This document shows, piece after piece, positions 50,366 through 58,283 of a stretch of DNA of 64,000 nucleotides. The position numbers and the translations under genes were made by a program. Source of the stretch: Candidatus Norongarragalinales archaeon. Its GTDB lineage: Archaea > Micrarchaeota > Micrarchaeia > Norongarragalinales > Norongarragalinaceae. Each line of letters starts with the position of its first letter. The stretch's first letter is position 1. Below the pieces are notes generated by a model. That model made no database searches, was not told the origin of the DNA, and saw only the letters and a list, made by a program, of their open reading frames with translations. Location of the stretch: NCBI GenBank assembly GCA_038884755.1, contig JAWABJ010000001.1:64001-128000 (forward strand), read 5' to 3'.

Positions 50366-50773
50366 TTATTTCCTGTATCCCTTGATTCGCGCTTTTTCCG
50401 AAGGCTTTTGGAACTTGTATCCAGAAAGGTTGCGCACTGTGCGTTCGCCGAAAGCCCTCGCCCGCTCCAAATCGGTTTCGTCAAGCGAGTTTTTGAAAAA
50501 CCCTTTTTTTTCCAAAAAAATCTGGTTGACGATGCGAGCGTTCTGCAAAATGCGTATTGCTTTTTCCATGGGGTTGCTGAATTCAAGAAAGCCTTTCGCG
50601 TGGAACAACGCCACGCTTCCCGTTTCCTTACCGCCGGCTTTCGCGCAATCGAGGAAAACCAAGTCAAAACCATCCTTGAATTCGGGAGAAAATTCTACGA
50701 ATGCATTCGCTTGCCTAGCGCCTTGAGCGATTTTTTCAGCGATTTCGCCTTCCCCGACTATTAAAACCTTCAT
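50366..50773 (-). CDS. Degenerate flavodoxin-like protein
   Basis: MKVLIV...IAEKIAQG...FDLVFL...VALF...DLERARAFGE; lacks the SxTGNT phosphate loop. Confidence 0.55.
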   Translation of the reverse strand: MKVLIVGEGEIAEKIAQGARQANAFVEFSPEFKDGFDLVFLDCAKAGGKETGSVALFHAKGFLEFSNPMEKAIRILQNARIVNQIFLEKKGFFKNSLDETDLERARAFGERTVRNLSGYKFQKPSEKARIKGYRK

Positions 50774-52344
50774 TTTTCCAGCAACGCTTTGACGAACCCG
50801 TCGAACAACGGTTCGGGCTGTTCAAGCCTTGAATCAAACTCGGGATGGTATTGGGAGCCTATTAAGAATTTGTGTCCCTTCAATTCTCCGATTTTTCTTA
50901 TCTCGCGTTTTGGGTCTCGTCCTGAAAAAACCCAGCCTGCTTTTTCCAGGTCGGGAATCAAGTCCGGGTTGATTTCATAGCGGTGGCGAAAACGCTTGTG
51001 GATTTTCTCGCTTTCGTAGCACTCGAACGCCAGCGTTCCCTTTTCCACTTTAACTTCGTAAGCGCCCAAACGCATGGTTCCCCCTTTTTCCTCTACCGAG
51101 TGTTGTTCCGGCAGCAAGCATATCACGGGGTGCTTTGTCGAAGGGTCGATTTCAGTGGTGTGCGCGTCCTTCCACCCGAGCACGTTTCTTGCGCTTTCGA
51201 TTATTGCCAATTGCAACCCGTAGCACAAACCTAAATAGGGGATGTTTTTTTCGCGGGCGTATCTCACTGTCTGGATTATTCCTTCCACTCCCCTTTCCCC
51301 GAATCCCCCGGGAACCACGAATCCGTCGAACTCGCCGAGTTTTTGCGTTCCCGCTTCCACTTTTTCCGAATCTATGAGAACGGCGTTGAGCTTGACGCCG
51401 TTGTTCAGCGCCGCGTGCTGCAGCGCTTCGAAAACGCTCATGTAAGTGTCGCGCGTAGTCGCATATTTCCCGACGACAGCAATCGTTTTTTCCGTTCGCG
51501 GTTTCTTGTCGAGCAACGCCCGCCATTCTTGCAGGTCTTTTTCCTTGAGCTTGAGCGAAAGCTTTTCTGCGATTAGCTTTTCCATACCTTGCTCTTCCAA
51601 AACCAAAGGCAGTTTGTAGACGCTGTCTACGTTTGGAGAGCAGAAAACCGCTTCGGGCGAGACATTGCAGAACATGGCGAGTTTCGCGTGCGCTTCCTTG
51701 TTCAAGCGCTTTTCGCTCCTCGCCACGAGAATGTCGGGCTGGATGCCAGCCGCGAGCAGCATTTTGACTGAATGCTGCATGGGTTTTGTCTTTTGTTCCC
51801 CGGTAGTAATCGTGGGAACGAGCGCAAGGTGTATGAAAACAACTTCGTCCCCGTCGAAGCGCATTTGGCGTATCGCCTCGAGCACTACTTCGCTTTCTAT
51901 GTCGCCCACGGTTCCGCCTATTTCAACAACCAGCACTTCGGCTCCAGTCACTTTAGCGGTGGCACGAATGCGGTGTTTCACTTCATTCGTAACGTGGGGA
52001 ATCATTTGCAGCGTTTTGCCGAGGAATTCTCCCTTGCGTTCTTTTTCGATGACCGCCTTGTAAGCCTGGCCCATCATGAGGTTCTGTTCTTTCCGCGCGA
52101 AAATGTTCAAGAAGCGTTCGTAATTGCCCACATCAAGGTCGCACTCGAACCCGTCTTGAGTGACGAAAACCTCGCCGTGCTCGAACGGGTTGAGCGTGCC
52201 GGCGTCGCAATTCAAATACACGTCTATTTTCATGCAGTTCGCGTCTACGCCCTTGCTTTTGAGAATGCGAGCGATGGAAGAGGATAGCGTTCCCTTTCCG
52301 AGGGAACTCAACACGCCGCCAGTCACGAAAACAAATTTTGCCAT
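50770..52344 (-). CDS. pyrG: CTP synthase
   Basis: FVTGGVLSSLGKG, EIGGTVGDIE, KTKPMQHS, GLCYG, RHRYE, QYHPE. Confidence 0.98.
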   Translation of the reverse strand: MAKFVFVTGGVLSSLGKGTLSSSIARILKSKGVDANCMKIDVYLNCDAGTLNPFEHGEVFVTQDGFECDLDVGNYERFLNIFARKEQNLMMGQAYKAVIEKERKGEFLGKTLQMIPHVTNEVKHRIRATAKVTGAEVLVVEIGGTVGDIESEVVLEAIRQMRFDGDEVVFIHLALVPTITTGEQKTKPMQHSVKMLLAAGIQPDILVARSEKRLNKEAHAKLAMFCNVSPEAVFCSPNVDSVYKLPLVLEEQGMEKLIAEKLSLKLKEKDLQEWRALLDKKPRTEKTIAVVGKYATTRDTYMSVFEALQHAALNNGVKLNAVLIDSEKVEAGTQKLGEFDGFVVPGGFGERGVEGIIQTVRYAREKNIPYLGLCYGLQLAIIESARNVLGWKDAHTTEIDPSTKHPVICLLPEQHSVEEKGGTMRLGAYEVKVEKGTLAFECYESEKIHKRFRHRYEINPDLIPDLEKAGWVFSGRDPKREIRKIGELKGHKFLIGSQYHPEFDSRLEQPEPLFDGFVKALLEK

Positions 52345-52347
52345 TGT

Positions 52348-52466
52348 AAACACGCTTTTCCGAAAGTGAAATGCACTACGCTAGTTCACTTGATTCCGGC
52401 AGAATTAGGGTACGCGAAAAGCGTGCCTGAATAAAATTCGAGAAAACGATTTTATAAACCTTTTCG
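52348..52466 (-). promoter_or_regulatory. pyrG promoter (BRE/TATA) and multi-stem 5' leader
   Basis: Minus-strand CGAAAAGG-TTTATAAAA at 52466-52450; 10-bp inverted repeat 52351-52360/52416-52425 enclosing a 7-bp stem 52364-52370/52385-52391. Confidence 0.6.
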
Positions 52467-52474
52467 TGGCTTTT

Positions 52475-52678
52475 GAAAAAACCCGGGGTGCAGGCGGCGC
52501 AGTAACGCAGCCGCCGTGCTATCCCGGGAATCGGGAGGAGCAGAAAGAAGGAGGAACCAAAGTTCCTCCTTTCTAAACCTCTTCCTTTTACCTACTTCTC
52601 CCTCTCTACACCTCTGTGTAGCGAGGCGTTGGCGTTTTTCTTTGGGGTTGACAGACCTTTCTTTCGCAAAGAAAGGGA
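52475..52678. ncRNA. Candidate structured RNA / long 3' UTR with four hairpins
   Basis: Hairpins at 52482-52528, 52548-52571, 52601-52626, 52656-52676; T-tract after the last hairpin on the minus strand; no convincing ORF. Confidence 0.5.
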
Positions 52679-52680
52679 TG

Positions 52681-53037
52681 TCAGTGCCCGATCATGACGG
52701 TCCTCTTGTTTTCGACAGTGACCGCCCTTTTGAGTTTGACCAGCTGGTAGTAGTAGGTCGCGAGGAAGAACGCGGGGAGCGCGAGCAAGTTCATGTTGAG
52801 CAAAAGCCAGGCTCCGACTATCGCGGAGAGGATTGCGTAAACCCTGTAGCGGATGAACATCTTGTAGTTGGGCAAGTGGTCCATCATGTACTCGTAACGC
52901 GTTCCCATCACGAGCAAAGGGCGTTTTGCCTCCGCTACGGTACCGTAAATGCCCACTTGCCCGGGGTAGGGGGTTTGCACTGGCACTGCGGAAGGCATTC
53001 CCGCGGTTTCCTTCAATTCCGTTTGTTCGTTAGCCAT
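52681..53037 (-). CDS. Small helical-hairpin membrane protein, paralog E
   Basis: SD GAGGT; VPVQT...TRYEYM; two TM helices; basic C-end. Confidence 0.85.
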   Translation of the reverse strand: MANEQTELKETAGMPSAVPVQTPYPGQVGIYGTVAEAKRPLLVMGTRYEYMMDHLPNYKMFIRYRVYAILSAIVGAWLLLNMNLLALPAFFLATYYYQLVKLKRAVTVENKRTVMIGH

Positions 53038-53047
53038 TTTTCATACC

Positions 53048-53446
53048 TCATTTCGTGGAAATCAGCGCTTTGCTTTTAAACCATTCGACGCTCCAAGCGT
53101 AATTAAGCAAAACCTGGCTCCAGAAGTAACCCGTCAAATAAGCGAAGAAAGCGGCAATCCACAAGTTGATGCCGTAAAAGAATATCACGGCGATTAGCGA
53201 AAGCACGCAGTACAACCAAGCTTTGTAGACCGTTCCGAGAGACCCTTCCTTCCATTTTTCCCCAAACCAGTCAGCAATTATTTCACCCCTCGTCTTGACC
53301 ATAAGAGAGTTTACGGGCGTGCCGTCCCCGAACAGCTTGTCGGACTGCATTGGAACGTACAAGTTGGGCGCGGTGCTGGCGCTGAATGCTGTCGCCTGTC
53401 CTTTCGCGCTTGCGTGCGCTTTGAATTCCTTCAAGCTTACCGCCAT
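53048..53446 (-). CDS. Small helical-hairpin membrane protein, paralog D
   Basis: SD GAGGGG; VPMQS...TRGEII; two TM helices. Confidence 0.85.
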   Translation of the reverse strand: MAVSLKEFKAHASAKGQATAFSASTAPNLYVPMQSDKLFGDGTPVNSLMVKTRGEIIADWFGEKWKEGSLGTVYKAWLYCVLSLIAVIFFYGINLWIAAFFAYLTGYFWSQVLLNYAWSVEWFKSKALISTK

Positions 53447-53458
53447 TCAAATCCCCTC

Positions 53459-53668
53459 TTAAATCCAGTTCAAAACCATTGCCGAATAGGCAATGCTCGC
53501 GAATACTATCGCCCAAATCACTTCGTCGGGCAGGATGAAACTAGGCCCGAACATTGCTTGTTCGAAAGTCCACCCTCCGTTGGCTATGTTCACGAGGCCC
53601 GCGTCTTCAAGCAGGCTAGTTATCTGCATTGCAATGCCCGGTTCGTGGGGCTTGAATTCTTTAGACAT
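53459..53668 (-). CDS. 69-aa single-TM protein
   Basis: SD-like GGTG; C-terminal TM VIWAIVFASIAYSAMVLNWI. Confidence 0.75.
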   Translation of the reverse strand: MSKEFKPHEPGIAMQITSLLEDAGLVNIANGGWTFEQAMFGPSFILPDEVIWAIVFASIAYSAMVLNWI

Positions 53669-53780
53669 GTTTCACACCACACTTGCAAACGGCGTATTCC
53701 CGCTGGTAGTCGAAGGCTTTCGCTGCCACCGCGGTCCACGCGTTTTTTTCTCCCACGAAGTACACTATTTCTTTTTGCAT
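53661..53780 (-). CDS. 39-aa micro-protein (absent from ORF track)
   Basis: Hand translation MQKEIVYFVGEKNAWTAVAAKAFDYQREYAVCKCGVKHV; starts 1 nt after the upstream stop and overlaps the next start, filling the gap exactly. Confidence 0.65.
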   Translation of the reverse strand: MQKEIVYFVGEKNAWTAVAAKAFDYQREYAVCKCGVKHV

Positions 53781-53781
53781 T

Positions 53782-54147
53782 TTAGTCCACCAGCACTATA
53801 GACCTGTACTTTCCGAAGGTTCTGGTAATGAACGCGTCCATCCACGCTATGTCTTGAAAGCGAGCTGCCAGCGCTATCATTAGCAGTCCGCCAGGCGGGA
53901 AAGCTTGCAGCGTGAGGATTCCGAATATGAAGCAGAATATGGCTTTCACCATGTTTTTGTAACGGTCTTTTTCGTACCCCACGTATTCCGCGAGGTAGTC
54001 GTACCTCTTGTGTTGCTTCATGAAAGGCGGGCTTCCCGGTTTTACGTACAAGGGCAAGAACGACCTTTGAGGTTGGCCTGCGGCTGCTCCTGCGCCGGTA
54101 GACGCGCCGATTTGCTGCACTTCCCTCACGGGCACTTCAGCAGTCAT
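53782..54147 (-). CDS. Small helical-hairpin membrane protein, paralog B
   Basis: SD GAGGT; LPLYV...KRYDYL; hydrophobic hairpin around PPGG. Confidence 0.85.
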   Translation of the reverse strand: MTAEVPVREVQQIGASTGAGAAAGQPQRSFLPLYVKPGSPPFMKQHKRYDYLAEYVGYEKDRYKNMVKAIFCFIFGILTLQAFPPGGLLMIALAARFQDIAWMDAFITRTFGKYRSIVLVD

Positions 54148-54158
54148 TTTTCACAACC

Positions 54159-54521
54159 TCAAGTTCCTTCCAAAATCTCGCGCTTTTTGTTGACTTCATT
54201 GAAGAAAAACGCTTTCCTGGCGTAAACTCCCCACGCCCAGCCTGCCATCAAAGCCAAAACGCCCGAGACCAGGATACTCCAGCCCAAGGCGTAAAGCGCC
54301 CCAACGCCAAGAACTACGGCCGCAACGCGGGAAATCTGGATGAGCCTCCAATTGCCGAGTTCGAAGTCCATGTACTCCTGCCTGGTTGAAACCTTCATTA
54401 CCCCTTTTCCTTCGGTTTGCACTGGAAGCCATACGGGAGAATAAGTCCACTCGTGGCCCGAAGCGTGGCTGTTGCCTTTAGCCATGCCCTTCAAACCCTG
54501 CAAGTCGGTCTTAACTATCAT
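54159..54521 (-). CDS. Small helical-hairpin membrane protein, paralog A
   Basis: SD GGAGG before ATG 54521; LPVQT...TRQEYM; two TM helices. Confidence 0.85.
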   Translation of the reverse strand: MIVKTDLQGLKGMAKGNSHASGHEWTYSPVWLPVQTEGKGVMKVSTRQEYMDFELGNWRLIQISRVAAVVLGVGALYALGWSILVSGVLALMAGWAWGVYARKAFFFNEVNKKREILEGT

Positions 54522-54559
54522 TTTTCCTCCCCCTTTTGCTGTATTACTCCTTGTTTTCA

Positions 54560-54572
54560 TTATTTATAAACT
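54560..54572 (-). promoter_or_regulatory. TATA box of the small membrane protein operon
   Basis: Minus-strand AAGTTTATAAATAA about 40 nt upstream of ATG 54521. Confidence 0.55.
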
Positions 54573-54754
54573 TGTCGGTAGTAACAACTAGGAGGGCAAA
54601 GCGCCGGAAAACAGCCTTGCAGCCTATATTATATAGGTTTTCGAGCATAAGGGTGTAAGGCTGATCGTTTTCGGCCGGCTTTCGGAAATAGGGGTAGTGA
54701 AGTTTAAATACCGTCGATTCTTTCCGAAGGATTTTTCGACAGGAAGCGAATTTT

Positions 54755-54914
54755 GGAAAGGTTTAAAAAGGGAGTTTTGGATATACCTTAACTTGCGTTC
54801 AACCCGCAGCAGGTAGTTTCCCAATGCGGCGTTGTAGGCGAGTGCATATCCTTCATAGGAAAGTAAGAACAGAGAGGAAAAAACAAACTACTGTCGAAAG
54901 ACAGAGGTGGTTAC
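54755..54914 (+). promoter_or_regulatory. S-layer gene promoter and long 5' UTR with strong SD
   Basis: GGAAAGG-TTTAAAAA at ~54755-54769; GAGGTGG at 54905-54911. Confidence 0.5.
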
Positions 54915-57497
54915 GTGAAAAGTATGAATGCAAAGAGAATTGCTGCCGCCGCTGCTGGCGCTGCAATGTTGGGCGCTGCTTTTGCAGGAGCCGTTAGCGT
55001 GGACGAAGCTGGCATGTCAGGTTTCCAGTGGGTCAGCAACGGTAGCCCGAATGTAGTTTTAGTTGTAGGCTCTCGCAGTATGCCTTCCGACGCAGTTGCT
55101 GCAGCCAACGTTGCCGCAATGATCGGAAACTTGGCGTACACGAGCGGTGCTGCTGTTGAAATCACCGGCACTGACTTGCTGACTTGCACCGGCGGTTCCG
55201 GTGGAAGCGCAACCACGACTTTGACCGTGGAGACTCCTGGAGTCAACCCGGCTTTGGCGTACCAAATCAAGTCGTACGTTAACGACTATGTGGACGACCA
55301 GGCTGACAACGTGAGGGACACGACCAGGACTTTGATGACTACTTTCTCGAGCCAGAACGCGACCAACGTGTCTGTAAGCGGAAACCCGAATGCGGTTACT
55401 CCCGACGACACTCAGGTTTTGGCTTTGCCGAGCAACGGCGCAATCGCCAACCCGAAGGGCTTGACCATCAAGGAAGACCAGAGGGTGTACGTTTCGGCCA
55501 ACACCGTTTACGACACTTCTGACGACAGGCTTGAGGGACAGAGCGCCCGCGTTGCTTACGAGGTTTCCTTTGCGGACCCGATTCCGGTCTGTTTGGATAC
55601 CACCAAGTCGCAGGCTACCTGCTCTCAATCGGACTTGATCACCAAGAACCGCATCAAGATAACTTTCTTGGGCGACACTTGGGTGTTGGTTCCTTCGTCC
55701 AGCGGTGCTGCGACCTGGGGATTGAACACTGACGCCACCACCTCGATTTCCACCATCGCAATGGGTAAGGAAGTCGACTACAAGAGCTTCATGGTGCCTG
55801 GAGACTCGACCACTCTTTCCGACGGAAAGAAGGTCGTGCTGAGCGACATCACCGGCATCGGAACTGGTACGAACACCCAGACCAGGGTTACGTTCCAAGT
55901 TTACGACGCGAACGGCGGTTTGCTCGACCAGACCACGCTCTATCCTCTCGAAACCTACGACAAGAACGGAGTCGTAATCTTCGTTTGGGACGTAGTCGGA
56001 GGCGCTTTGGGTGGAACCAACTACGCTGAAGTTTCCCTCTTCGGAAACAGGCTCGTCATCGAAGACGGCAAGAAGGTTTCCGGACAAGGAGACTGGTACG
56101 CTGAAATCCAGACGCAAAACGTTTCCACGTCGCAAGGTTTGCAGAAGGTCGTCCTCATGGACACGACCACGATTGCGAACTTGGCGCCCGGAGACAGCCT
56201 GCAGTTGATAAAGAACATTCCTGGCTTGAAGCTGAGCTTCAGCGGAATCGACTTGAAGGACGACGATTACGACAATCTCACCTTCACCCTGCAGAAGAAC
56301 GCGACCATCAGCGTCGCCTCTGGAAGGACGATTTCGGGAGACTTCATCCAAGTCTCTTCGACCAAGAGCAACGCGTTCTACCAATCCGGACAGACTGACA
56401 CTTCGGGTGTCAGCAGCGTGTACGTGATGGTGAGCAACTTCGCCAACTCGTCTACCGGAACGCAGAACTACTACGCCACGACCATCTTCTACCAGAACAG
56501 CACTTCCGAGTGGGTTGCTGGCACGAACGCAAGCGTTGCTGGAGACCAGCTTGGAGTAAATGTCTCTACTACCACGTTGACGTACTACTACTCGTCAACC
56601 GAAACCGCGACCATCCGCTTCATGCAAGCGTTGAACGGAACCAGCTCGACCACGCTGAACAACGACGCGTTCGTAATCGCAGTTCCCGAGGGAACTGAAG
56701 ATTCCGACACCAGCGCGACGGTTGCGGACAACGGCGGGACTGCACAACCGTACTGGACGATTATTTACGACCAGGACGCGAGGCAGTTTGTGAGCGACAT
56801 CAACTCTACCACGATTGGAACCAACCCGTTCGGTTACGAAGCCAACAGTGCGACTGACGCGACTGGAAACTTCCTTAGGGGTGCGTTCAACTCGACTGGC
56901 GGAGTTTCGTTCGCGAACGTCGAACCCAAATACATCTCTTACAGGGGTAGCGTGGCAAACGGATTCGGAACCGATTCAGTCTCTCTGAAGTACGCGAAGA
57001 AAATCGGGCACGGTGTGTACTTGTTGACCAAGGCTGGCACTGCCGGCACTGACAACAAGGTAACCAAGGACTTCAAGGCAGGCGAAACTGCTTTGGACGA
57101 CTCTGGCTACAAGGTCACCGTTGACGCGATTAACGCGGCTGGAGCAGGCGGTGCTATCGGCGGAACCGACAACTTGAAGGTAATGGCAAACGGAGTTGAA
57201 GTCAGCTCTTTGGATGCCGTGGTTCCTCTGGACACCAGCTCTGCGCCTTTGGTAGTGTTGGACACCAACCCGCTCGCGAGCGGCTCGTCCAGCGTGATCA
57301 CCTTCGGTGGTCAAATGGTCAACAGCGTTTCGGCCAGTGCTTTGGCTGGAGCTGAGTTGACTCCCGGAAGCGAGCCTGTCGTGAAAGTGGTTGGCAGCAA
57401 GATCGTCGTTGCAGGTTACGACGCTGCTGGAACTACCGAAGCCGCCAACACGCTCATCGCGTGGTTGAGCGACAACAGGGACGCCATCAGGGGCTAA
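54915..57497 (+). CDS. Major S-layer glycoprotein (Methanococcales/Thermococcales S-layer N/C-terminal type)
   Basis: KRIAAAAAGAAMLGAA signal, VVG...SDAVAAANVAAMIG, C-terminal GGQMVN...IVVAGYDAAGT; many N-x-S/T sequons; strong codon bias. Confidence 0.92.
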   Translation: MKSMNAKRIAAAAAGAAMLGAAFAGAVSVDEAGMSGFQWVSNGSPNVVLVVGSRSMPSDAVAAANVAAMIGNLAYTSGAAVEITGTDLLTCTGGSGGSATTTLTVETPGVNPALAYQIKSYVNDYVDDQADNVRDTTRTLMTTFSSQNATNVSVSGNPNAVTPDDTQVLALPSNGAIANPKGLTIKEDQRVYVSANTVYDTSDDRLEGQSARVAYEVSFADPIPVCLDTTKSQATCSQSDLITKNRIKITFLGDTWVLVPSSSGAATWGLNTDATTSISTIAMGKEVDYKSFMVPGDSTTLSDGKKVVLSDITGIGTGTNTQTRVTFQVYDANGGLLDQTTLYPLETYDKNGVVIFVWDVVGGALGGTNYAEVSLFGNRLVIEDGKKVSGQGDWYAEIQTQNVSTSQGLQKVVLMDTTTIANLAPGDSLQLIKNIPGLKLSFSGIDLKDDDYDNLTFTLQKNATISVASGRTISGDFIQVSSTKSNAFYQSGQTDTSGVSSVYVMVSNFANSSTGTQNYYATTIFYQNSTSEWVAGTNASVAGDQLGVNVSTTTLTYYYSSTETATIRFMQALNGTSSTTLNNDAFVIAVPEGTEDSDTSATVADNGGTAQPYWTIIYDQDARQFVSDINSTTIGTNPFGYEANSATDATGNFLRGAFNSTGGVSFANVEPKYISYRGSVANGFGTDSVSLKYAKKIGHGVYLLTKAGTAGTDNKVTKDFKAGETALDDSGYKVTVDAINAAGAGGAIGGTDNLKVMANGVEVSSLDAVVPLDTSSAPLVVLDTNPLASGSSSVITFGGQMVNSVSASALAGAELTPGSEPVVKVVGSKIVVAGYDAAGTTEAANTLIAWLSDNRDAIRG

Positions 57498-57547: not shown

Positions 57548-57623
57548 AGGGGAGGGTTCCTACTTCTTTTCGTTCTAAACCGCCTATCGCGGTTTTTTGT
57601 TTTTTTTCAAGAGGTTTTTCGGC

Positions 57624-58283
57624 TTGAACAAGACTTGGTTCATTCGCGCTGGCTTGGTTTTTCTCATCCTCTCGTTCTTCATAGGGTTTTTTTGGCCTAT
57701 TCTCTTCACTCCTGACTCGCAGCAATCGCCTTCTGTCAGTCCCACGCCTGGTTTGCCTTCGTTCACTTCGAGCGACAACACTACTGCGACGGTGAAAAAG
57801 CTTGAAAACAGGCTTATTTTCTTCTGCCAGGACGCCGGGCAAGAGCAGCTTGCGCAAATCGCGGCAGGCTTGCGGGCTGTAGAGGGGGTGGAACGCGTTT
57901 TGTCCGGCTCGACGGTATTCGACGTTTCGCTTTCCAAAAACGCTTCTTCAAGTTCCTTGAGTTCGCTTGAGCAAGCGTTTTCTTCCTTGTGCCCGTCGGG
58001 AAGCGGGTTCAGGCGAGCGGCAGAGTTGGATTTCGCTTCTTCAGTGACGTTCACTCCGCCTCAGGGCTTCGACCCTATAGTCGCGCGCTTGCCTTCGACG
58101 TTGTGCAGGCAGCCTAACTGGAGCTGCCTGGTTTTGCTTTCCACGCAGGAAAACGCGACAATATCTGCAATAGTCACTTTAACGCGTGCCGAGGACGGCA
58201 GCGAACAAGGCGTGGTGCAGGAAGTGCCAGGCTTGGACGCCTTGCCTTCACCCTCGCCTTTCCCGTCGCCGAGCGCGTCTTGA
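57624..58283 (+). CDS. Membrane-anchored exported protein with Ser-Pro linkers
   Basis: N-terminal TM (AGLVFLILSFFIGFFWPILF), four Cys, PSPSP tail; start uncertain (57597 or 57624). Confidence 0.7.
   Translation: MNKTWFIRAGLVFLILSFFIGFFWPILFTPDSQQSPSVSPTPGLPSFTSSDNTTATVKKLENRLIFFCQDAGQEQLAQIAAGLRAVEGVERVLSGSTVFDVSLSKNASSSSLSSLEQAFSSLCPSGSGFRRAAELDFASSVTFTPPQGFDPIVARLPSTLCRQPNWSCLVLLSTQENATISAIVTLTRAEDGSEQGVVQEVPGLDALPSPSPFPSPSAS

Follow-up and report, generated by a model that had tools for sequence, protein, structure and literature searches.

Wedge-type hairpins occur in several groups of membrane proteins, among them the reticulon/REEP, caveolin and stomatin-type proteins. Another described hairpin protein is Mic10, the core subunit of the system that organises contact sites and cristae in mitochondria (MICOS), which carries GxGxGxG glycine motifs in both of its transmembrane segments according to PMC4431669. 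The operon discussed here is encoded on a 64-kb stretch, referred to as the window in its full length, of contig JAWABJ010000001.1 (assembly GCA_038884755.1) from a Candidatus Norongarragalinales archaeon. Four of its genes, named A, B, E and F, encode small paralogous hairpin proteins, gene D encodes a tail-anchored protein, and a micro open reading frame (ORF), C, lies between B and D. The nearest functional analogues of the hairpin proteins are wedge-type proteins such as Mic10. Like Mic10, they are small and have a two-helix hairpin as their sole membrane part, and the distribution of charges predicts that their two ends lie on one membrane side, as in Mic10. Mic10 oligomerises, has no catalytic residues and plays a structural, membrane-bending role, whereas for the archaeal proteins such a role is a proposal. 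The resemblance is one of design and not of membership, because the glycine motif that defines Mic10 was found by a G.G.G.G regular expression in only 2/85 sequences (A 0/21, B 1/21, E 1/21, F 0/22); no sequence relationship was detected either. Furthermore, Mic10 homo-oligomerises, whereas a heteromer of four paralogs with a tail-anchored partner is proposed here. The ends of Mic10 are short, whereas the N-terminal cytoplasmic regions of the window proteins comprise 45-60 amino acids (aa) with conserved motifs of their own, and Mic10 is mitochondrial, whereas the window proteins belong to an archaeal cytoplasmic membrane.

The initial annotation of the window described six tightly packed minus-strand ORFs behind one TATA box, and both points hold. 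All six frames are present, with lengths of 120, 121, 39, 69, 132 and 118 aa, namely gene A (54159-54521), gene B (53782-54147), ORF C (53661-53780), gene D (53459-53668), gene E (53048-53446) and gene F (52681-53037), and the single TATA box of the operon, TTTATAAAT, is located upstream of A at about 54563-54571. The locus was compared with 20 relatives from seven families, giving a set of 21 loci in which A, B, E and F were identified by BLAST and D by a hidden Markov model (HMM). The order A-B-D-E-F is retained in 21/21 loci, with an HMM match for D in every one of them. The gaps between the genes mostly measure 1-16 nt, and negative values stem from over-long ORF calls. The proposed six-gene operon is accordingly upheld for A, B, D, E and F, while the 39-aa ORF is confined to the genus of the window.

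The operon is preceded by a dedicated promoter element, GTTACTACCGACAAGTTTATA, a 21-mer at 54565-54585 on the minus strand, which consists of the TGTTACTACC box, a stretch similar to a B recognition element and the TATA box. It is found upstream of gene A in 21/21 loci with at most three mismatches, the window being an exact match. The proteins of distant families are only 26-40% identical, yet the 21-mer is kept there, so that the promoter element is conserved more strictly than the encoded proteins. In three loci it falls inside the longest ORF of A, and the start calls were corrected there for this reason. Within the genome of the window (927 kb in nine contigs, 93% complete), the element is the sole site that joins the box to a TATA box. 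A regulon search with the promoter box in this genome returned no second site of this kind; two further exact copies of the upstream box, TGTTACTACCNNNNAG, are present, both without a TATA box.

Genes, gene order, tight spacing and promoter element are conserved across the order Norongarragalinales. A profile of B detects the family in 32/34 other genomes of the order and in 0/266 genomes from other families of the phylum sample, which belong to other Micrarchaeota orders. With a superfamily profile, A6, built as the joint core alignment of 85 sequences of A, B, E and F, at least four strong matches are obtained in the same 32/34 genomes. The two genomes missed are G021 (83% complete) and G035 (89% complete), the latter being the sole member of its family, f11. 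Protein F alone is matched in 56/61 genomes of the order sample, that of the window included, and in 10/11 families. Among 116 genomes of other orders, A6 yields weak matches in 38, mostly one each and in a few cases two, at E values up to 0.1. A search of 1.84 billion representative proteins with A6 retrieved 147 relatives at E up to 1e-3, of which 120 remain at up to 1e-10. These proteins are 72-235 aa long, and all of them can be assigned to one of the four types (A 36, B 26, E 38, F 47). No fusion to a known domain occurs among them, the longest having 235 aa and the 12 longest lacking a Pfam hit above threshold. The superfamily has no detectable relative outside Norongarragalinales.

The nearest candidate for such a relative was DUF2061 (PF09834), a 'predicted membrane protein' family with two helices that occurs in both bacteria and archaea. 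Its members are similar in size, and their hairpin is likewise preceded by a conserved Arg-containing motif. The best A6 match outside the order, and the only one with any strength, is a 79-aa protein of this family from another Micrarchaeia order (L041:4021-4257, genome G235; E 2.6e-5 per genome), which matches Pfam DUF2061 at 4e-12 and has homologues in bacteria and archaea. The relationship was rejected, as hhalign of A6 against a 24-sequence DUF2061 alignment reached only 29.6%. In contrast to DUF2061, the proteins described here lack the invariant C-terminal YxxHERxW motif, and the Pfam model detects none of them at E up to 1.

The four hairpin proteins had been described as diverged paralogs, which is borne out by an all-versus-all hhalign comparison of the family alignments (21 sequences each). 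The probabilities range from 86% to 98.5%, with 98.5% for A-E, 98.1% for B-F, 97.1% for A-F, 94.2% for A-B, 89.6% for B-E and 86.1% for E-F, whereas D reaches less than 0.4% against any of A, B, E or F. Thus, A, B, E and F are paralogs by sequence comparison, and D is unrelated to them. The R-x-[ED]-[YI] motif reported as common to the four is likewise confirmed in its Arg, which is invariant in 85/85 sequences of A6. The same holds for the basic C-terminal end, where R114 of A, R115 of B and R112 of F are each found in 21/21 sequences and K126 of E in 20/21. A third motif, [LV]P[VML], can be retained for A (P33, 21/21), E (P32, 21/21) and most of B. It does not extend to F, in which VPVQT belongs to an N-terminal extension that the window shares with L021 and L022 alone and does not correspond to the conserved position. 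Each family also keeps its own diagnostic residues throughout the order. These include P33, R47, W58, G98 and R114 in A, R48, Y51, E54, Y55, G76, F111, G112 and R115 in B, and R47, G75, Y95 and R112 in F, which represents the minimal core of the superfamily.

A tree of 93 rows, calculated by maximum likelihood and flagged by the tree tool for long branches, supports the grouping of B with F (96/92) and the separation of A, B and F from E, G and H (96/98), where G and H denote the products of a second locus. Because of these two nodes, a division of the operon families into an A/E type and a B/F type is supported. Together with the order A-B-D-E-F, this division fits a tandem duplication of an ancestral pair of one A-type and one B-type gene. 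The second locus consists of the tandem genes G and H, distant members of the superfamily with about 150 aa each (L042:1259-2209, L043:1571-2427, L044:1659-2627 and L045:2196-3122). By hhalign, G matches A6 at 96.1%, H matches A6 at 85.3% and the two match each other at 97.4%. G contains an invariant C-terminal motif, WGGYAG-W-DYE-DP, and the pair is divergent from a gene for a TrmB-type regulator in L042, L043 and L045. G occurs in 17/68 genomes of the order. The four remaining genomes of the genus to which the window belongs all carry it, but in the window's own genome, which is 93% complete, the G/H pair was not found. In a same-genus genome, G is preceded by a weaker look-alike of the promoter 21-mer with five mismatches. 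The idea that G and H constitute another A-type/B-type pair was rejected, as they are mutual closest relatives (100/99) and branch with E.

AlphaFold2 (AF2) models show the membrane part as a helical hairpin. In A, the helices span residues 47-79 and 83-111, with a predicted local distance difference test (pLDDT) score above 90. The model of E has a mean pLDDT of 80.9, with a short helix at 53-60 and helices at 70-91 and 95-124, and exceeds 90 in the hairpin. The N-terminal regions are modelled with low to moderate confidence (below 50 for residues 1-33 of A, about 62-80 for E). The hairpin loop averages about 2 residues over the 85 cores and is uncharged, with 0.0 Lys and Arg, and the apex is formed by Gly-Trp-Ser, Pro-Pro-Gly-Gly, Asn or Pro. 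The mean number of Lys and Arg residues is 2.65 in the 15 residues ahead of the hairpin and 1.76 in the 15 residues after it. Because of these basic flanks, read with the positive-inside rule, and the very short uncharged loops, the soluble parts are predicted to lie in the cytoplasm; both termini are likely cytoplasmic, with almost nothing exposed outside. The longest run free of Lys, Arg, Asp and Glu, covering both helices and the turn, has a median length of 35 residues in both A and E, 33 in F and only 27 in B (232 sequences). B therefore has the shortest uncharged hairpin, which turns at an FPPGG apex. Such stretches are short for two full passes through the membrane, clearly so in B. For this reason, the segments may be shallow wedge-type hairpins; otherwise, a thin membrane or buried charges may be required.

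In none of the families does a His or Cys column reach 80% conservation, and the hydrophobic segments contain no conserved polar or charged column. The conserved charges are the Arg and Lys residues at the flanks together with E54 and D121 of B and E118 of A, all outside the hairpin. Small residues (Gly, Ala, Ser) are kept in one helix in all families. Protein D ends in a single hydrophobic helix and has the conserved acidic residues E21, D22 and D48.

On these grounds, the five genes are tentatively proposed to build one hetero-oligomeric, cytoplasm-facing hairpin scaffold, composed of four paralogous hairpins and one tail-anchored subunit, a reading given somewhat less than an even chance. 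A single stoichiometric heteromer is predicted because of the fixed gene order, the tight coupling, the presence of four paralogs with their own diagnostic residues and the dedicated promoter. Tandem duplication of the ancestral pair would have led to a pseudo-symmetric heteromer of A, B, E and F, joined by D. Each subunit would enter the membrane from the cytoplasm and keep its N- and C-termini inside. The short uncharged hairpins, clamped by invariant Arg or Lys residues on both flanks, would serve as shallow wedge-type or thin-spanning anchors, and strand-like motifs ahead of the invariant Arg and at the C-terminal end may knit the subunits together on the cytoplasmic face. The complex would then be a structural platform that organises or shapes the membrane, and not an enzyme, a transporter or an S-layer anchor. 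A structural role is favoured because catalytic and pore-lining residues are missing, the hairpins are short and clamped, and the predicted orientation is cytoplasmic. A bolder version, in which a heteromer of two A-type/B-type wedge-hairpin pairs and the acidic tail-anchored subunit in the cytoplasmic leaflet organises or bends the membrane of ultra-small cells under the control of the order-wide conserved operator, is speculative and rather doubtful as it stands.

Several observations weigh against this proposal. Binding between the subunits is a prediction from gene order and paralogy, both read from sequence. The distinction between a wedge and a full double pass is drawn solely from segment lengths, and for hairpins of 33-35 residues a double pass through a thin membrane is conceivable. 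The topology is taken from the positive-inside rule and nothing else. The idea of strand exchange involves the N-terminal regions of A (residues 1-33) and E, which are modelled with low to moderate confidence. A wide VIA-align search with the model of E returned generic helical hairpins only (ESCRT-III, PspA and others) with Z scores up to 8.9, against a bar of about 13 for helical folds. The neighbourhood offers no functional guidance, as only pyrG (9/21 loci) and an S-layer gene (5/21) recur. The only run in which the stretch was found is a hot-spring metagenome. The DNA run X1 covers it at about 3-5x, the RNA run X3 of the same study yielded 0 contigs for it, and RNA evidence of the operon was not found. 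Finally, a basic residue of B, R96, is present in 17/21 sequences just past the short second helix, at its cytoplasmic end, where it might just as well be the buried functional charge of a channel.

An unlikely alternative is a small hetero-oligomeric channel or pore, whose hydrophobic helices, at least eight from A, B, E and F together, would surround a path that conducts ions or small solutes. Bundles of two-helix subunits are a common channel design, and besides R96 the small residues kept in one helix of every family would suit such packing. A PDB sequence profile search also gave matches to chains of MrpG (E 0.06 and 0.58) and to MscS (E 1.2), none of which is significant. A conduction path would, however, have to do without a conserved polar or charged column inside the hydrophobic segments and without a selectivity-type motif in a loop of about two residues. 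The hairpins are short for a full double pass, above all the 27 residues of B, and no channel family of Pfam or NCBIfam rises above noise at E up to 1. For Mrp subunit G (MnhG), there is no Pfam match, and no Mrp genes are found among the neighbours of the loci, a statement limited to the neighbourhood.

A comparably low probability is assigned to the possibility that the proteins are accessory or assembly subunits docking on a larger machine encoded elsewhere; the A-type ATPase, systems for secretion or pili, and pathways for lipids or glycans are examples. Small hairpin subunits specific to a lineage are found in many large membrane machines, and weak NCBIfam matches point to ATP synthase subunit I (E 0.037) and a type III secretion system (T3SS) protein (E 0.023), both far below the cut-offs. 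The gene context gives some further support. The CTP synthase gene pyrG (50770-52353, minus strand; Pfam CTP_synth_N 9e-109), which has its own TATA-like promoter and is regarded as context, lies downstream of F in 9/21 loci from three families (7/14 loci of f1 and one each in f9 and f4), and a cis-prenyltransferase gene lies upstream in two loci of f10. The neighbours are otherwise variable and comprise, besides cis-prenyltransferase, RadA, Hjc, M24 peptidase, NUDIX, toxin-antitoxin genes and an integrase. A dependent subunit set is also at odds with a promoter element that is the operon's own in all 21 loci and whose box is joined to a TATA box nowhere else in the genome, and with the lack of any fusion to a known domain among the 147 relatives.

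It is very unlikely that the genes encode independent small membrane proteins that are merely co-transcribed, for example in a stress response or as holin-like factors. In their small size, two helices and basic ends, the proteins resemble class II holins, F shows a weak match to a 'membrane protein' family of PHROGs (E 0.0045), and gene F is tandemly duplicated in one relative (L031:1823-2447, genome G040). Independence is difficult to reconcile with four paralog families and D in one fixed order at every locus, with at least four A6 matches in 32/34 genomes of the order and with the diagnostic residues retained by every family. Moreover, no lysis or phage genes are adjacent.

The initial annotation also pointed to the divergent S-layer gene and suggested an envelope complex, an S-layer anchor or a host-contact junction. 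The gene is indeed present at 54915-57497 on the plus strand, matches Pfam S_layer_C at 8.1e-14 and is not part of the operon. It is the divergent upstream neighbour in 5/21 loci (the window, L022, L025, L027 and L030). All five belong to family f1, in which three more contigs stop before the place where it could be seen; among the loci of other families it was found in 0/7. According to 10.1101/2021.04.28.441871, at least one Micrarchaeota order in which the operon was not found is covered by an S-layer, and S-layer anchoring is unresolved in a cultivated Micrarchaeon, whose order is among those in which the operon was not found. In spite of the adjacency in five loci, the missing C-terminal hydrophobic anchor of the window's S-layer protein and the unresolved anchoring, an envelope complex for S-layer anchoring or episymbiont contact is unlikely, indeed the least likely of all readings, because the predicted topology provides no ectodomain beyond a loop of about two uncharged residues between basic flanks, the synteny is patchy, the operon was not found in the other Micrarchaeota orders searched, and Norongarragalinales are argued, in PMC12892359, to be less host-dependent or free-living.

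Some further observations concern the S-layer gene itself. A 228-aa ORF at 57597-58283 on the plus strand follows it directly and contains an N-terminal hydrophobic segment and a Ser/Thr/Pro-rich region, with no Pfam match. Because the S-layer protein lacks a C-terminal hydrophobic segment, this ORF is, from its sequence, more suitable as a candidate S-layer partner or anchor than the operon is. The intergenic region between the divergent genes contains a 15-nt palindrome, CCTATATAATATAGG, at 54623-54637 that is TATA-like on both strands; it precedes the S-layer start by about 280 nt and may act as the promoter or an operator of the S-layer gene. In L025:525-3503 (genome G012, isolate LFW-144_1), the S-layer gene beside the operon reads as two ORFs of 688 and 216 aa, both of which match S_layer_C; a frameshift, a faulty assembly or a genuine split of the gene could account for this. 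According to PMC8561730, LFW-144_1 serves as type genome for 'Ca. Norongarragalina meridionalis' of the order Norongarragalinales.

The proteins had not been recognised as members of any family in the initial annotation, and the searches agree with this. No Pfam family was found at E up to 1 for A, B, D and E, and F matched only TauE (0.019); nothing above noise was found for the six proteins in Pfam, NCBIfam or PHROGs. In the ESM Atlas, the best score of 0.81 equals the level of shuffled queries, and no usable named match was obtained. Foldseek found no match for the model of A against the PDB at E below 0.9, and the best hit of the PDB sequence profile search, a CTR1-cytochrome b562 chimera (E 0.0017), was judged spurious. 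Three named systems were also considered and ruled out. Conjugative pilins of the VirB2/TrbC/CedA1 type have a cleaved hydrophobic leader, a basic inter-helix loop and linkage to a VirB4-type ATPase. The proteins described here show no hydrophobic window before the hairpin and 0.0 Lys and Arg in the loop, and no VirB4-type ATPase is encoded among 92 flanking ORFs of 20 loci. The c-subunit or proteolipid of ATP synthase is recognised by the ATP-synt_C profile and a conserved carboxylate in its second helix; here, there is no Pfam match and no acidic column conserved at 80% or more inside the hydrophobic segments. SlaB-like S-layer stalks or anchors combine a membrane anchor with a substantial extracellular domain that contacts the lattice, whereas the sole predicted external part here is the loop of about two uncharged residues, and the S-layer gene is adjacent in just 5/21 loci. 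No paper describing these proteins was found in the literature, the supplements of PMC12892359 and PMC9258230 being outside that search; in the text of PMC9258230 (Meheust et al. 2022), the word 'Micrarchaeota' does not occur.

At the level of the individual genes, the longest frame of A has 133 codons. The 120-aa start is the correct one, because homologues of the same genus begin at that Met and the upstream ATG abuts the TATA box. The intergenic gaps of the window operon measure 10-12 nt, except around ORF C. The product of this micro-ORF is predicted to be soluble. Its ATG lies one base past the stop codon of B and its stop codon overlaps the start of D by 8 nt, in keeping with the translational coupling suggested for it earlier. 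The four loci that belong to the genus of the window are the only ones with ORF C; it is in frame with synonymous changes in 4/4, and its N-terminal half and reading frame are preserved among them. Most other loci leave no room for it, since B and D are 1-16 nt apart there or their longest ORFs seem to overlap. Shine-Dalgarno (SD) sites were scanned as matches to the anti-SD sequence. A complementary 4-mer at -18 to -4 precedes 6/6 operon starts, compared with 22/64 gene-like ORFs of the window and 16% of random positions, and 5-mers precede 3/6 operon starts compared with 8/64. Clear sites at five of the starts, and their absence from many window genes, had been noted in the initial annotation. 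The inference of a strongly translated operon does not follow, since SD sites at internal operon genes are ordinary in archaea.

Downstream of F, the spacer of about 330 nt up to pyrG (52354-52680) contains two hairpins of putative function and a TATA-like site for pyrG near 52455. The first, at 52548-52571 on the minus strand, is a terminator-like hairpin followed by a T-rich tail. The second, CCTTTCTTT-GCGA-AAGAAAGG, lies at about 52656-52676. The evidence for them is a consensus scan and a reading of the sequence. Rfam gave no match at E up to 1 within 52200-55100.

Norongarragalinales are placed as the sister group to all other Micrarchaeia (PMC8561730) and are argued to be the least host-dependent Micrarchaeota (PMC12892359). 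Three features point to a central task of the gene set in this lineage: it is nearly order-wide, was not found in the other orders searched and has a promoter that is stricter than its proteins. As a set of proteins without known relatives, it offers a defined and workable way into the 'dark' membrane proteome of DPANN archaea, and all five proteins have a size that permits co-expression, native mass spectrometry and cryo-electron microscopy. If the operon encodes a channel or an accessory module instead of a scaffold, it still defines a new family. If the wedge-hairpin heteromer is real, it would be a lineage-born archaeal counterpart of MICOS/Mic10, reticulons and caveolin. It would also be the first description of a hetero-oligomeric wedge-hairpin scaffold from prokaryotes, and an invention of a single order. 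Membrane shaping by hairpin heteromers would then have arisen independently in archaea.

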